Shown here: positions 29,638-34,582 of the stretch, in pieces
Position numbering within the stretch: the first letter of the stretch is position 1
How the letters are laid out: every line of letters begins with the position of its first letter
DNA from: a virus
Lineage: Duplodnaviria; Heunggongvirae; Uroviricota; Caudoviricetes
Direction: 5' to 3' (one strand)
IMG/VR virus record: IMGVR_UViG_2602041909_000007
DNA: 36,618 nucleotides
Program-made: the position numbers and the translations under genes
The notes under the pieces: model-generated
Databases searched by the model: none
Told to the model about the DNA's origin: nothing
What the model saw: only the letters and a program-made list of their open reading frames with translations

Positions 29638-30003
29638 TTACTGCGTCATACCGTTCAGGGTGTCACGGCAAACGGCAGCCAGCCGCTGAATTTCCAGCAC
29701 GGTGTCTTCTGTGTCGGCATGGCGATGTGTGATGCGGATGCTGTCGGCAATCACATCGACGATTGCAGAGGATGGGCGCTGGTAAATGCCAATAACGGAC
29801 GGAGTGCCACCTTCAATGCGGTAAAGCCTGTAATTTCCCTCGTGGCTGTCAATCATGTAGCGACCATCAATAACAATCTTTCCGTCAGCGAGCTGCGGTA
29901 CAGGCAGGGATTTCAAGTACATGTCATAACGTTCACGCACGCGAACGGCAAGATCACGCTCTGTGTTGAGCAGGTATTCAAGAAAGTCGTTGGCGAGAAT
30001 CAT
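29638..30003 (-). CDS. Hypothetical early protein (121 aa)
   Basis: ORF immediately upstream of gpA-like gene in same operon. Confidence 0.45.
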   Translation of the reverse strand: MILANDFLEYLLNTERDLAVRVRERYDMYLKSLPVPQLADGKIVIDGRYMIDSHEGNYRLYRIEGGTPSVIGIYQRPSSAIVDVIADSIRITHRHADTEDTVLEIQRLAAVCRDTLNGMTQ

Positions 30004-30075
30004 TGCGGCAATCCTCTTGTTACAGATGTGCGAAGGCCTCCCGCCGCAAGGTGCAGGAAAGGCCCGGAACAGGAA

Positions 30076-30306
30076 TTAATGGAGTTTGTTTTGCTGCTGG
30101 ATGAGCTGCTGAAGCTCGCGCAGATCATCCGCCAGATAACTGAAAACAGCGGATGAGTAGAGGTTTGAAAGTTCGCAGCTACGCTCATGCAGCATATTGA
30201 TGTGCATGATTTTAGCGACGCGGAATGCGCGGGAAAGTCTGCGGTTGATTTCAGTCTGGATGTGACGACGCTCCGCGATAGCGCGGTGCTGTTTGCGGTT
30301 TGCCAT
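30076..30306 (-). CDS. Hypothetical small basic protein (76 aa)
   Basis: Compact ORF preferred over overlapping low-complexity 205-aa ORF; lies downstream of candidate promoter/operator repeats. Confidence 0.4.
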   Translation of the reverse strand: MANRKQHRAIAERRHIQTEINRRLSRAFRVAKIMHINMLHERSCELSNLYSSAVFSYLADDLRELQQLIQQQNKLH

Positions 30307-30309
30307 GGT

Positions 30310-30540
30310 GTGGTCTCTGTAGTTGCAAGTTTTGAAAACTCACCATCCAGAGGTTGCAATTCTGGGTGGCGAGGCGTATGGGGTTGCAACCACCGGCAAC
30401 TACAGAAACCGGCCCGACCGAAGTCGGCCCCATGCGCCCCACCATAATTCGTGTGCGAAAAAGACGTGGCGATACGGTACGCACAAAAAAACCGCTGGCG
30501 CGGTTGTGCGCTGTAGTTGTCAGCGGGGGTTGCAATCCCG
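30310..30540. promoter_or_regulatory. Non-coding region with four GGTTGCAA palindromic motifs and an internal minus-strand terminator
   Basis: GTTGCAA at ~30322, 30353, 30383 (spacing ~31 and ~30 bp) and ~30529; hairpin CCGC-tggc-GCGG with 8-T run on minus strand at ~30483-30505. Confidence 0.45.
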
Positions 30541-30628
30541 GCACCCGTTTTATGGGGTGCAGCGGAAATGTAACCTGATTGATTGCGGCAGGGCAAGCGG
30601 TTTTTTTGTGTGTGCATGTTCTGGTTTC

Positions 30629-30928
30629 TTAGTGGTTCAGAAAAAAATCAAAAACCTTGTCAATGCGTTGCAGCAGCTCTTGCTGTATTGCTTCCGGCGT
30701 TTCCGGTTCGCCTGGCGCCTCCAACGTCGCGCAGAAATCCTCGATTTCATGACGGAGCGTCAGGCGAATGGCGAGAGGTGTGGTTCTGGCGTGCTCCAGC
30801 TCATCCAGCAGCGCCAGCACAGCAGACGGCGAGAGCATTGCGCGAAACGCCAGTAATTTTTGAGGCGTTGCCATTCGTTGCAGGTCAGTCGCCAGTTCGC
30901 GTAATTCCTTGTGGTTGATGGCGCTCAT
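30629..30928 (-). CDS. Hypothetical early protein (99 aa)
   Basis: ORF with ATGA-type coupling to upstream gene. Confidence 0.5.
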   Translation of the reverse strand: MSAINHKELRELATDLQRMATPQKLLAFRAMLSPSAVLALLDELEHARTTPLAIRLTLRHEIEDFCATLEAPGEPETPEAIQQELLQRIDKVFDFFLNH

Positions 30929-31170
30929 GCTCTGGCTTCCTTCAGTAGCTGGTTAAACATGTTGGTAAGTGGATTGCCGCACCCGAACGGCATCGGGTTT
31001 ATCTGGTAAGAAAAGCGACCGCCTGTTTTGCGCTCTTTTCTTATGACTGAACCGCTGCGCCAGAGTCGGCGTAACTCCGCATTAATGGCTGTGGTTGGGG
31101 TATTCAGTGCTGCGGCGATTTCTCCACCGCTACACCCCGGATTGGCAGCGATATAATCCAGAACGGTCAT
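30925..31170 (-). CDS. Putative winged-helix DNA-binding protein (81 aa)
   Basis: MTVLDYIAANPGCSGGEIAAALNTPTTAINAELRRLWRSGSV pattern typical of wHTH regulators; coupled to neighbours. Confidence 0.45.
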   Translation of the reverse strand: MTVLDYIAANPGCSGGEIAAALNTPTTAINAELRRLWRSGSVIRKERKTGGRFSYQINPMPFGCGNPLTNMFNQLLKEARA

Positions 31171-31370
31171 CTGCGTGACTCCTGTACCTGTCGGATAAGG
31201 TTCACCCGCACCACATTCGTGGCGCAGAAGTAAGTGCCGTCAGTGAGATAGATGTGATGTGCATCCTTTTCTGAACGGTGTTTGTCGATTGTGGTAATCA
31301 GGCGTTCATCGACTTCGTATTCGCTCCCTCTGGAGGTGAAGCGAACGACGGTAAATTGCTTAATTGCCAT
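31167..31370 (-). CDS. Hypothetical early protein (67 aa)
   Basis: ORF coupled to neighbours in early operon. Confidence 0.4.
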   Translation of the reverse strand: MAIKQFTVVRFTSRGSEYEVDERLITTIDKHRSEKDAHHIYLTDGTYFCATNVVRVNLIRQVQESRR

Positions 31371-31699
31371 TACATTTCCTTAACCTGGAAGGCCTGCACC
31401 ATTTGGTGCAGGCGGTACATGGTGCGAAAACGCGGGCGGGTGCGACTGGTGTCAGTTTCGCGTCCGTTAACGCGGTTCAGCCAGCCGTAGCCGTACCAGC
31501 GATTGGCAATCCATACTTCAACGACGTTGTCGTTGTGATGAAAAATCGCGTTGTGCTCATTCGTTGCGACGAGAACGCCTTCATTCAGTAGCTGCTGTAG
31601 CTCTGCATCCCATGAAGGGTTGAATTGGTAGACATAAAAGCCACTTGCGCTTTTCAGAATGTGACTCATCAGAGTCATGCGGTATTTCAGTTTCCCCAT
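31370..31699 (-). CDS. Hypothetical early protein (~110 aa)
   Basis: Start set at internal ATG 31699 (MGKLKY...) to avoid overlap with upstream gene. Confidence 0.4.
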   Translation of the reverse strand: MGKLKYRMTLMSHILKSASGFYVYQFNPSWDAELQQLLNEGVLVATNEHNAIFHHNDNVVEVWIANRWYGYGWLNRVNGRETDTSRTRPRFRTMYRLHQMVQAFQVKEM

Positions 31700-31706
31700 A
31701 GCTGAC

Positions 31707-32120
31707 TTATGCGTTAAATGTGGAAGAGGCTGCGGGGTCGGTGAACACAACTCTGTCACGCGCAACAATGCGCACATCCTCCAGAGGTTTGTTTTCGTCT
31801 GTGGGGGATGGGGTGATCAGGTATCCGTTTGCCATTTCTGACAGAATGATGAATTCCTGTGACGGGTTACCGACGATAACGACCCGTTGTCCTGCGACGG
31901 GTAAAGTCGTGCCGGCACCGGCTAACTGAGCTTTGAGGGCGCTGATTTCTTTGTGTTGTTCTTCGATGAACTCGGCGGCATTTTCTATGACGCCGGCTAC
32001 CATCAGTGCATGAACGCTGAGAATGTGAGCGCCTACCTTTGTTGCTCGCTCGTGCATTTCACGCTCCATCGCGGATAACATTTTCAGAGAGGTAAGGGTG
32101 TCTTCGGTTTTTGTGTTCAT
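31707..32120 (-). CDS. Hypothetical early protein (137 aa)
   Basis: ORF in early operon. Confidence 0.5.
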   Translation of the reverse strand: MNTKTEDTLTSLKMLSAMEREMHERATKVGAHILSVHALMVAGVIENAAEFIEEQHKEISALKAQLAGAGTTLPVAGQRVVIVGNPSQEFIILSEMANGYLITPSPTDENKPLEDVRIVARDRVVFTDPAASSTFNA

Positions 32121-32212
32121 TTTCTTTCTCCGTTGTTTGGATGTACGAATACCTCCGCGAATGCGGATTGTTTTCAGGTTTTCTTATTTAATGTGGTGTT
32201 TTATTTGTGCTG

Positions 32213-32326
32213 TTATTCGTCAGAGAAAAAACGCTCAATCTTTTTCACTGAATGAATAATTCGCATAATGCCAATGGTGCAGACCACCGAAATAATCAGA
32301 ATAAGCCATGATATAAATATACTCAT
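32213..32326 (-). CDS. Small hydrophobic membrane peptide (37 aa)
   Basis: Not in ORF track. My translation MSIFISWLILIISVVCTIGIMRIIHSVKKIERFFSDE; ATG overlaps stop of upstream 80-aa ORF (ATGA), single TM helix then basic tail. Confidence 0.45.
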   Translation of the reverse strand: MSIFISWLILIISVVCTIGIMRIIHSVKKIERFFSDE

Positions 32327-32565
32327 GCGATATTCCCCAGTTTATATGGTTCAATGCGAACCCCGTATTCTGTGTCCCGGACAAGTTCGGAAAGCTCGTT
32401 AATCGCATCCAAATCGTCAGCGTAAAAGGCCACGTCATAAAGGCTTCTGATTGCCCTTGCTAATGAATCATAGGCCGCGTGTTCTGCCTGGACTCCTGAT
32501 GTGTTTAAGCGAAAATGAAAACGCTCAAGTGCTTTATTGACGAGAGTCTTGTATTCCTGGTCCAT
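32323..32565 (-). CDS. Hypothetical early protein (80 aa)
   Basis: ORF in early operon, coupled to small peptide gene downstream. Confidence 0.5.
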   Translation of the reverse strand: MDQEYKTLVNKALERFHFRLNTSGVQAEHAAYDSLARAIRSLYDVAFYADDLDAINELSELVRDTEYGVRIEPYKLGNIA

Positions 32566-32576
32566 TGCAACGCCCT

Positions 32577-32855
32577 TTAATCTGCCTTATGGGTTTCAGC
32601 TTCTGAATCCATACAAATAATTTCGATATAGGGTTCATCGCCATTAACCTGACGTGCCTTTTCAGCTTCGCTAATGATTTCTCGTACGGTCTGATACGGA
32701 AGCTCCACAGTCAGGCGCGTACCGTTCAGATAAACGTAAGTAGCTGCGTTTTTTTCGGATGGAACAACTCCGTCAATGGCTGATGCGCGTAATAACAGTT
32801 CACCGCGAAAATCAATAAAACGGATAAATACACTTTGTGCATGGTCTTTGGTCAT
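32577..32855 (-). CDS. Hypothetical early protein (92 aa)
   Basis: ORF in early operon. Confidence 0.5.
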   Translation of the reverse strand: MTKDHAQSVFIRFIDFRGELLLRASAIDGVVPSEKNAATYVYLNGTRLTVELPYQTVREIISEAEKARQVNGDEPYIEIICMDSEAETHKAD

Positions 32856-32865
32856 AAATCACCTG

Positions 32866-33264
32866 TTATAAATCAGCCTGTTTAATGAAATTCTGTCCGC
32901 GCAGCAGACGATCAACCGTGCGCAGAGCTTCGTACAACGTGAAATCCTGTCCAAACTGATTGTCGCCGTTGCTCAGAGCAAAAATGCGGTTTCCGGTAAA
33001 TGGGTTGCGTTGGCATCTGTGAACCACGATTCCTGCTTTCTCAATTAGCCAGGTGTGTTCACCAATTTGTTTTACGGGATGGCCATCAGGTGTGGCGTGT
33101 GTTTCGCTCAGGCTGTAGCGAGAGCTGCTGCGTGATGCGCTGGTGGCGAAACGGTTAGCGTGGCGTTCCGCCCCGTTGCGGAAGCGTTGCTGTGAAGAAT
33201 TTCGTTGTTGCTTCATACAAAAATATCCTGCTGCTGTTGCGAATTTGTGCCGGGTTTTAGCCAT
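32866..33264 (-). CDS. Hypothetical early protein (132 aa; alternative start at 33216)
   Basis: ORF in early operon; basic N-terminus; start uncertain. Confidence 0.4.
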   Translation of the reverse strand: MAKTRHKFATAAGYFCMKQQRNSSQQRFRNGAERHANRFATSASRSSSRYSLSETHATPDGHPVKQIGEHTWLIEKAGIVVHRCQRNPFTGNRIFALSNGDNQFGQDFTLYEALRTVDRLLRGQNFIKQADL

Positions 33265-33357
33265 GCCCGGCGCATGGTTTTGTGGTATTTTTCCACCGCC
33301 CGCAGTCTTGAAGGGGCTGTAAAGGGCGCGTGTTTAACCAACCACAAAGGAGTTGTT

Positions 33358-33825
33358 ATGGAATTAGATGCTTTTGTGTGTCTGCGAATTTTTGAAAAAC
33401 ACTGCGAGCGAGTTGCTGAATCCTATCGTGATGTGCTGGATAAAGAAACAGCCAACTCAGCATTTGTTGCTACTCGAGCATTAATTCTCCTTAAATTGGA
33501 TTTGCTACTTGTCGAGTATCGAAGAAATATTGATTCCAAGTGTGTAGTCCTCTTCGGAAAAAATGTGCTTTATCATTATCTTTTCACCCAAAAGGGTGTT
33601 TCATTGTCTGATGCCAAAAATATGTGTCTCCATGACATACTTATTGTTCTCTGGAATGATATTAATGCATATGTAATACCAGAGCATGTATCCGAGCGTA
33701 TCCAGATTCTTTATAAGCACGAGCTCTCATCTCCAATGCCTGATTTAAGTTATGAAGATGAAAGTCTGTTGCACTTTAAGGATTCTGCTTGGGATTTTTA
33801 TCCTGCCGATACACGACTGAATTAA
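33358..33825 (+). CDS. Hypothetical AT-rich accessory protein (155 aa), antisense-oriented relative to early operon
   Basis: Strong AAGGAG SD 7 nt upstream of ATG 33358; markedly AT-rich; convergent with and overlapping 3' end of 33776..34384. Confidence 0.55.
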   Translation: MELDAFVCLRIFEKHCERVAESYRDVLDKETANSAFVATRALILLKLDLLLVEYRRNIDSKCVVLFGKNVLYHYLFTQKGVSLSDAKNMCLHDILIVLWNDINAYVIPEHVSERIQILYKHELSSPMPDLSYEDESLLHFKDSAWDFYPADTRLN

Positions 33826-34384
33826 TAAACTCATTGTTTCTATCTATTTCAGCCTGGTAGGCCTCTAACTCATGCCGTAATTGTTGTTGTCTTAGTGGTA
33901 ACCTGTTGCGGCATTTCAATTCTGCTACAACGGTTTCCAAAAAATTTATCAGTTCTTCATCAGTGTATGAGCCAGCATAAATGTACGGTTTAGTGTTAGC
34001 GCATGTACAGTCTGCTGTTTCTTTAATGAGCATTGATTCGTCATCCATAATCTGTCGATAAAGTTCAAATGCTTCTTCGGCAGGAAACCTGAGCATGACG
34101 CCGCATACTGGTTCTAAAACCAATCCGAACGTTCCCTTTGCGTTATCCCGACAAAAATGGCCGTATTCATCGTCGGGATGCAGGGTGGCATCTTTCAAAT
34201 CTTCGCCATTCTGAAGCTTTGATTTAAATGCCATCAGGTCAGCGAACGTTCTGTGTAATTCGTGGTAGTCAATGCTGATTTCAACCTGTGGTTTGCCCGG
34301 AAAAACCAGCAAAAGCTTCTGGTGCGGCTTTTCGTTTTTCAGGGTTTCCAGTCGTTCCAGTAGCGCTTTATTTTTGTGATTCAT
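33776..34384 (-). CDS. Hypothetical accessory protein (202 aa)
   Basis: ORF downstream of cox-like gene; AT-rich (~43% GC by eye); 3' end overlaps the plus-strand 155-aa gene by ~50 bp. Confidence 0.5.
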   Translation of the reverse strand: MNHKNKALLERLETLKNEKPHQKLLLVFPGKPQVEISIDYHELHRTFADLMAFKSKLQNGEDLKDATLHPDDEYGHFCRDNAKGTFGLVLEPVCGVMLRFPAEEAFELYRQIMDDESMLIKETADCTCANTKPYIYAGSYTDEELINFLETVVAELKCRNRLPLRQQQLRHELEAYQAEIDRNNEFINSVVYRQDKNPKQNP

Positions 34385-34582
34385 TCTACTGTTACCTCTT
34401 TTAACTCATTCAGGCAGGGTGATATAACCCACTAACTGCCCGTGTTTGAAATAACGGCGACGAAAGTGATTTGTTATTTGTGTTAAAAATAATTTAGTCA
34501 TTTCAAAGTCCCAGCCACAGCAACCATGCGTCTCGCTATTCTTTCTGGCGAGCAAAGAATACTTCGACGCTCTTGATGTTGT

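Follow-up and report, generated by a model that had tools for sequence, protein, structure and literature searches.

Temperate phages often carry small hydrophobic genes in their early regions. We here deal with one of them, a 37-codon gene on the minus strand of the IMG/VR record IMGVR_UViG_2602041909_000007. This whole stretch of 36,618 nucleotides, called the window below, represents a P88-like (Xuanwuvirus, P2-family) prophage of Escherichia coli; its closest phages are P88, other members of Xuanwuvirus and the Citrobacter phage PhiSM, which can plate on E. coli K-12 and lysogenise it (PMC6456863). In the early operon of phage 186, the corresponding slot is held by fil and dhr, which encode non-structural proteins of 75 and 66 amino acids and end just before the terminator tR1; the annotation of fil reads 'overexpression blocks cell division'. 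On the host side there is Blr of E. coli (41 amino acids), which Karimova is said to have described as a divisome component in 2012.

Two papers that cite this work likewise report Blr as part of the divisome (PMC7648144, PMC10470546). It is a substrate of RseP, a class that usually adopts an N-in/C-out orientation (PMC10470546). Gp11 of the Staphylococcus aureus phage PhiNM1 is an early small membrane protein that binds MurG and DivIC and blocks division (PMC11237401). Type I toxins are shorter than 60 amino acids and have one transmembrane helix and a charged or bulky C-terminus (PMC2887945).

The gene of the window lies before a hairpin equivalent to tR1, a position that fits the early-operon slot of division inhibitors of the Fil/Kil type. 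We are confident that it is a genuine protein-coding gene and that its product is a single-pass inner-membrane protein. What this protein does can be stated in graded probabilities.

The reading frame and its relatives

The gene and its putative ribosome binding site are located as follows:

32213..32326, minus strand: gene of a 37-amino-acid small membrane protein (ortholog of P88 gp07), ATG at 32326-32324, TAA at 32215-32213
32338-32333, minus strand: Shine-Dalgarno-like GGGGAA, 6 nucleotides 5' of this ATG, inside the 3' end of the DUF4754 gene

A first-pass annotation of the window had noticed the frame, without giving its strand, and the overlap of its ATG with the stop of an 80-amino-acid frame upstream. 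Sequence and list of open reading frames confirm both: the TGA of the upstream frame occupies 32325-32323, which yields an ATGA with two bases common to both codons. The deduced product is MSIFISWLILIISVVCTIGIMRIIHSVKKIERFFSDE. That it is a single-pass membrane peptide coupled to the upstream gene in an early operon agrees with the gene order of NZ_CM128601.1 and P88. The peptide had also been called unannotated, which is wrong. The RefSeq record NZ_CM128601.1, one record with 100% identity over the 601 bases around the frame, lists it as coding sequence WP_000021649.1, 'hypothetical protein', by the Prokaryotic Genome Annotation Pipeline (PGAP), which lists it likewise in STEC316. In phage P88 the ortholog is gp07 (YP_009113050.1, 'membrane protein'), which overlaps gp06, the DUF4754 gene, by 4 nucleotides, and many further copies are found in UniRef and NCBI.

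Of course, an open frame of 37 codons is by itself no evidence of a gene, since 75 frames of at least 25 amino acids overlap positions 30000-34500; the case therefore rests on the comparison with related sequences. For this purpose, 80 IMG/VR loci were collected via the DUF4754 gene and 91 via divergent DUF4754 alleles, and the contigs of three divergent peptide alleles were also looked up. The ATGA overlap and an open frame, 30-45 codons long, are kept in 83/83 loci, in 91/91 further loci and in 183/183 locus copies in all, the last figure including many contigs fetched twice and thus standing for fewer distinct contigs. A purine-rich run precedes the ATG at the same distance in every allele (GGGGAA, GGGAAA, GAGGAG, GAGGTG, GGAGTG or AAGGGG), and it persists although the C-terminal residues of DUF4754 vary.

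The substitution pattern is that of a coding sequence. The ratio of nonsynonymous to synonymous variation (pN/pS), computed on the first 33 codons of 35 unique sequences, is 0.22 in the frame of the gene, compared with 1.55 and 1.21 in the remaining two sense frames, which contain stops in 35/35 and 34/35 sequences; among the antisense frames, the minimum ratio (0.35) belongs to one that is interrupted in 24/35. Four-fold degenerate sites are free to vary: G19 is encoded by GGG, GGC, GGT or GGA, A17 by GCC, GCA or GCT, and S13 by TCG, TCA or TCT. Four deeply diverged alleles, the pairs of which share 60-73% of their nucleotides and 46-63% of their amino acids, still yield ratios of 0.31-0.48, and their variable sites number 21, 8 and 27 at codon positions 1, 2 and 3, respectively (chi-square p ~0.006). 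Such conservation of the second codon position marks a hydrophobic coding frame. Across the same deep pairs, DUF4754 is only 28-39% identical, which makes the peptide the better conserved of the two. As judged from these substitutions, the frame is under purifying selection.

One may still suspect a chance frame that owes its conservation to an overlapping RNA or DNA element or to common descent. Short frames abound in the region, as mentioned, and most related loci are 76-90% identical, which implies recent shared ancestry. The frame is, however, open even in the alleles with 60-73% nucleotide identity, where changes fall mostly on codon positions 3 and 1; the opposite-strand frame that looks best by pN/pS and the competing sense frames are broken by stops in the numbers given above; and PGAP and the phage annotators called the gene independently of each other. 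We give a chance frame practically no credence. The check that had been proposed at first pass, conservation of the frame and its synonymous-site pattern in homologous phages, leaves the gene standing.

The family is widespread in E. coli. Of 5426 complete E. coli genomes, 1364 (~25%) have a match to the 601 bases around the frame, nearly all at 80-90% identity; the peptides form 23 clusters at 76-92% identity, and tblastn of the peptide against P88 gives 83%. The source names of the copies are nearly all E. coli, with a few Salmonella or 'Enterobacteriaceae'. When 1.84 billion representative proteins were searched exhaustively with the family profile, 17 came back at E ≤ 0.001, all of them members or fragments of the family itself, which is a narrow one; a Kil, Sie or toxin family was not detected at this threshold. 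PHROGs, NCBIfam and PADLOC gave no match to the peptide, and Pfam offered only a sub-threshold DUF2975 (13.8 bits, the cut-off being 27).

A scan of the genome collection with DUF4754 yielded one locus only. It lies on a contig of 226 kb (NZ_JBQPOM010000071.1) that bears the label Vagococcus sp.; its DUF4754 is 79% identical to that of the window, and the coupled peptide is present. In the case of an enterobacterial P2-like prophage, the label suggests assembly contamination or mislabelling. BL21(DE3) (NC_012971, 872-893 kb) harbours a P2-like prophage of the 186 type, with CI and CII, that has lost most of its early region and is devoid of the peptide gene; the strain was for this reason ruled out as a source of ribosome-profiling data. 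The same prophage carries a reverse transcriptase and effector pair of retron St85 between the replication remnant and the portal gene.

Architecture and predicted topology

The product can be divided into two segments and a variable end:

32264..32320, minus strand: predicted transmembrane helix, codons 3-21, IFISWLILIISVVCTIGIM (Hessa-scale scan, AlphaFold2)
32222..32263, minus strand: basic amphipathic juxtamembrane segment, codons 22-35, RIIHSVKKIERFFS, predicted to be cytoplasmic

The first-pass annotation had spoken of one hydrophobic helix and a basic C-terminus. The helix is borne out: residues 3-21 have a simple Hessa-scale sum of -3.2 kcal/mol, and the lowest-energy 19-mer begins at residue 3 in 44/44 distinct alleles, with sums of -1.9 to -4.8 kcal/mol. 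The basic C-terminus stands in part. The juxtamembrane region is basic (R22, K28, K29, R32), but the extreme C-terminus, SDE, is acidic. AlphaFold2 models the peptide as one continuous helix from residue 2 to 35, with a predicted local distance difference test score (pLDDT) of 86, and residues 22-35 should form an amphipathic helix because of their high hydrophobic moment (0.73; 0.55-0.56 in divergent alleles). In 44/44 alleles the two residues before the helix are uncharged and the 15 residues after it contain 2-5 K/R, from which the positive-inside rule predicts an N-out/C-in orientation. A lipoprotein or a cleaved signal peptide was considered and rejected: none of the 44 alleles has K or R before the hydrophobic stretch, and the cysteine is not invariant, C16 giving way to M or F in 7/44 alleles, while the database variants P0019 and P0021 have Y or A there.

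S6, W7 and I24 are invariant in the 44 alleles, L10, I11, A17, G19, I23 and K28 are almost invariant, and 41/44 alleles retain R22, I30 and E31; within the main clade the first 30 residues are nearly invariant. After residue 34 the tail varies and ends in 37-residue (..FFSDE), 41-residue (..LFTGEERRK) or 45-residue (..FSLTNNSTNKTPD) forms. By inspection, S2, S6, S13 and A/T17 lie on one helical face, which suggests a surface for helix packing.

A helix of this kind might also damage membranes. As a toxin or viroporin-like peptide, acting in the manner of a type I toxin or a pinholin, it would form oligomers through a heptad face of Ile and Ser and make the inner membrane permeable or depolarise it, whereby host metabolism would be shut down or competitors excluded. 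Size and shape are those of type I toxins, and small or polar residues recur on one face at heptad spacing (S6, S13; S2, I9, C16, I23, I30; partly by inspection). Yet there is no stand-alone locus: the gene is embedded in an operon and overlaps the preceding gene by 4 nucleotides. An antisense antitoxin RNA or promoter was rejected as improbable on sequence grounds, since no Rfam antitoxin or small RNA family matches the locus and promoter-like sites on the opposite strand number 4, with 5.7 expected by chance. Moreover, early depolarisation of the host would, as we reason, hurt the phage's own replication. The location is also not that of a holin or pinholin, the gene belonging to the early operon, with cox on one side and the replication gene A on the other, and not to a late lysis cassette. 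All in all, a membrane-damaging toxin appears unlikely.

Early operon, DUF4754 partner and hairpin

In NZ_CM128601.1 the gene order is dmsA, int, the gene of a helix-turn-helix repressor (C), cox, a 202-amino-acid frame, an ECs1072-family gene on the other strand, the DUF4761 gene, a 92-amino-acid frame, the DUF4754 gene, the 114-nucleotide coding sequence of the peptide and, further on, the gene of the replication endonuclease (A). Judged by this order, the peptide gene belongs to the early operon of a P2-family prophage. The surrounding elements in the window are:

32323..32565, minus strand: 80-amino-acid DUF4754 gene, the obligate upstream partner (Pfam PF15946, E = 4.7e-41; phrog_2549)
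32577..32855, minus strand: 92-amino-acid early gene (phrog_3800), upstream in the same operon
32866..33216, minus strand: DUF4761 gene (Pfam PF15958, E = 1.5e-68), the first of the block DUF4761-(x)-DUF4754-peptide
32121..32212, minus strand: A-rich intergenic spacer of 92 nucleotides, directly 3' of the peptide gene, containing the hairpin
32154..32167, minus strand: conserved, covarying 5-bp hairpin UCCGC-AUUC-GCGGA, then GG-UAUUC

The peptide gene directly follows DUF4754 in every locus examined. DUF4761 is kept upstream in all divergent loci, the middle gene of the block is optional, and the gene content past the hairpin varies. DUF4754 is predicted to fold into a three-helix bundle (pLDDT 89); a sequence search of the PDB gave no match to it. 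A likeness to the C-terminus of P2 B (BLASTP E = 0.002) was dismissed in view of an hhalign probability of 2.2%.

The hairpin, the general form of which is UCCGC-N4-GCGGA followed by GG(G)nUUC, is separated from the end of the frame by 45 A-rich, G-poor nucleotides, and the whole spacer measures 80-92 nucleotides, a gap of about 80-90 being kept in divergent loci. Across 16 distinct variants, 97.5% of the hairpin cells are paired; two of the five pairs show compensatory changes (C-G to U-A), and none of 500 shuffles reached the covariation score. In position and sequence the hairpin matches the P2 terminator after gene B (CGCAC..GUGCG-GGGCUUCUUUUU) and 186 tR1 after dhr (GGCG..CGCC-GGGCAUUCUUUU). 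By this correspondence, the peptide gene is the last cistron of the first early-transcript segment, a slot that in P2 belongs to B and in 186 to fil and dhr.

The U-tract of the hairpin, read on the operon strand, is degenerate in P88-like phages and intact in one sub-lineage; the upstream A-rich tract provides the plus strand with a T-tract, and the scan calls a plus-strand terminator at 32154-32167. In the IMG/VR sub-lineage L177-L184 a second tiny hydrophobic frame of 31-34 amino acids, e.g., MKNVKAILTIATVWLIFQVCALIWLALKIWG, starts 12 nucleotides after the peptide gene (locus coordinates about 1878-1980), and a canonical terminator of hairpin and T-tract comes after it. Its N-terminal lysines predict the opposite topology.

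The arrangement invites the idea that translation itself matters, and not the product. Coupled to DUF4754, the frame would carry ribosomes up to the spacer and the hairpin and thereby modulate Rho-dependent or intrinsic termination, or the stability of the mRNA, at the equivalent of tR1. The short A-rich, G-poor distance to a conserved hairpin would suit this role, and, according to a note in the 186 annotation, A appears to be translated only if ribosomes read orf84 to its end. However, it is the amino acid sequence that is under purifying selection, codon position 2 being the most conserved, and a transmembrane helix with positive-inside flanks in 44/44 alleles would be needless in a pure spacer frame. 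We consider such a role very improbable.

Elsewhere in the region, an insertion between cox and DUF4761 (33358-34384) is not found in P88. It comprises the 202-amino-acid frame (33776-34384, minus strand) and, overlapping it in opposite orientation, the ECs1072-family gene (33358-33825, plus strand). Possibly the insertion is a moron or accessory cargo; PADLOC gave no convincing match to it. Rfam recognises, on the minus strand of the stretch 30076-30560, a C4 antisense RNA (30362-30449, 76.8 bits) and isrK (30485-30560, 61.3 bits), just 5' of a 76-amino-acid gene whose name in P88 is 'derepression protein' (PF25738). We take this set to resemble the module of CI RNA and epsilon-type antirepressor of the satellite P4, here in a P2-family phage of the helper type.

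Proposed role and comparison with named systems

We propose that the peptide gene would be transcribed from the C-repressed early promoter and translated in coupling with DUF4754, and that the peptide would accordingly appear early in lytic growth and be absent from the lysogen. Inserted N-out/C-in in the inner membrane, it would act as a non-structural, host-directed accessory factor. The small-residue face of its helix (S2, S6, S13, A/T17) may bind a host inner-membrane protein or complex, and DUF4754, an acidic three-helix protein, may be held at the membrane by the amphipathic tail on the cytoplasmic side. If 186 Fil and PhiNM1 Gp11 are taken as analogues, the likeliest class of targets would be the envelope or cell-division machinery. 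We arrive at a host-directed accessory factor because of the early coupled expression, the strict pairing with DUF4754, the packing face and the amphipathic tail. As a whole, i.e., a coding membrane-protein gene with a host-directed accessory role, this is the explanation to which we lean with modest confidence. The specific target and partner, drawn as they are from analogy, are doubtful.

An early membrane protein might, instead, protect the infected cell from competing phages. In lytic growth, a superinfection-exclusion factor like Imm of T4 would keep secondary phages from injecting their DNA or interfere with receptor function. An early inner-membrane protein of a family confined to one phage lineage would, by analogy, fit an accessory gene of such an arms race. 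Exclusion genes, however, usually diversify, whereas this peptide is strongly conserved, its first 30 residues nearly invariantly so within the main clade, and PADLOC, PHROGs and the exhaustive search revealed no homology to known exclusion proteins (T4 Imm, P22 SieA, HK97 gp15). Nor is the gene placed for expression in the lysogen, judging from the repression of the P2 early promoter by C. We find early exclusion improbable, to about the same degree as a toxin. An exclusion role expressed by the lysogen is unlikely too, because, going by P2 biology, repressor C should keep the operon off.

Several points weigh against the host-directed role that we prefer. Translation and function of the peptide are inferred, and the N-out/C-in topology is a prediction. 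Homology to any characterised protein went undetected in family libraries, by BLASTP and in the exhaustive profile search; neither DUF4754 nor the peptide, by sequence or accession, turned up in literature searches, and the papers on P88 and PhiSM do not discuss the gene. For the DUF4754 model, Foldseek against PDB and BFVD found nothing at E ≤ 0.001, the hits being generic helical bundles. The similarities to Fil and Blr do not reach significance. The Fil motif of ten residues has p ~0.03-0.05 and scores lower with divergent alleles, which is not significant after multiple testing; it was rejected as evidence and kept as a lead. The likeness to Blr concerns a ten-residue core that was chosen post hoc and reaches p = 0.0014 against shuffles by Smith-Waterman; the family hidden Markov model gives E = 8e-5 with K-12 Blr as a single comparison, or ~0.3 when scaled to the ~4,300 K-12 proteins, and 1 of 2000 shuffled decoys scored as high. 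Blr was not among the exhaustive-search matches at E ≤ 0.001. As the likeness is not significant at proteome scale and after multiple testing and the predicted topologies are opposite, it is at most a doubtful lead.

Locus L088 joins a DUF4754 of the window type to a peptide of the L087 type, the similarity switching at the ATGA junction; DUF4754 and peptide are therefore not tightly co-adapted, and the strict complex model is weakened. On this sequence pattern, the two genes are separate recombination modules. In L088 (GCA_900536625.1, 1-4126) the DUF4761-DUF4754-peptide block lies 3' of a Mu-type transposase gene and not of int, C and cox.

The boldest version of the host-directed role would unite DUF4754 and the peptide in an early module of two parts for host takeover, one specific to phages of the P88 kind, and would make it a new family of divisome inhibitors. 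The transmembrane helix, with its Blr-like core, would attach to the divisome of E. coli or to some other envelope complex, and the tail would recruit the acidic DUF4754 bundle to impose a transient block of division or envelope synthesis in lytic growth. We regard this as a long shot. If it were true, a phage family of divisome inhibitors would be present in about a quarter of the complete E. coli genomes; if an essential envelope or division complex were targeted, the peptide would be a Gram-negative counterpart to Gp11 of PhiNM1 and a possible lead to an antibacterial target. More soberly, the obligate pairing gives DUF4754 and the peptide a shared, testable context, and the peptide gene is a clean, strongly supported case of a phage membrane protein below 50 amino acids that neither a family model nor a published study covers. 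As a hypothetical gene it is well validated, of an ordinary kind and not surprising.

How, then, does it compare with the named systems? The type I toxins of the Hok, Ldr, Fst and TisB class share its size, the one transmembrane helix and the charged C-terminal tail; unlike their genes, that of the peptide is operon-embedded and translationally coupled, with no promoter of its own, no homology to them and no tandem duplication. Blr resembles it in size, in having a single transmembrane helix and in the core of that helix (WIVLVVSVI compared with WLILIISVV), yet belongs to a class that is usually N-in/C-out, in contrast to the predicted N-out/C-in of the peptide. Gp11 of PhiNM1 is likewise a small membrane protein among the early genes of a temperate phage, but of another host and another phage family, and a sequence relationship does not exist.

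Fil and Dhr of 186 come closer in context, as non-structural products of the same slot in the P2-family early operon. BLASTP of the peptide against 186 Fil and Dhr and P2 Orf78, B and Orf80 gave no match, and a scan of the early regions of 186 and P2 revealed no small hydrophobic frame. The C-terminal stretch of Fil, IIRIVHFVIK, is hydrophobic and basic and recalls IMRIIHSVKK of the peptide; unlike the peptide, Fil is without a full transmembrane helix. The true counterparts are P88 gp07 (YP_009113050.1) and the PGAP proteins WP_000021649.1 and WP_161620296.1. These orthologs have the same length, position and 4-nucleotide overlap with DUF4754, are ~83% identical where they align and are followed by the same hairpin, and nothing essential differs. 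With them, the gene is an uncharacterised addition to the small membrane proteins of phage early operons, one that is already in the databases and whose function is inferred only.

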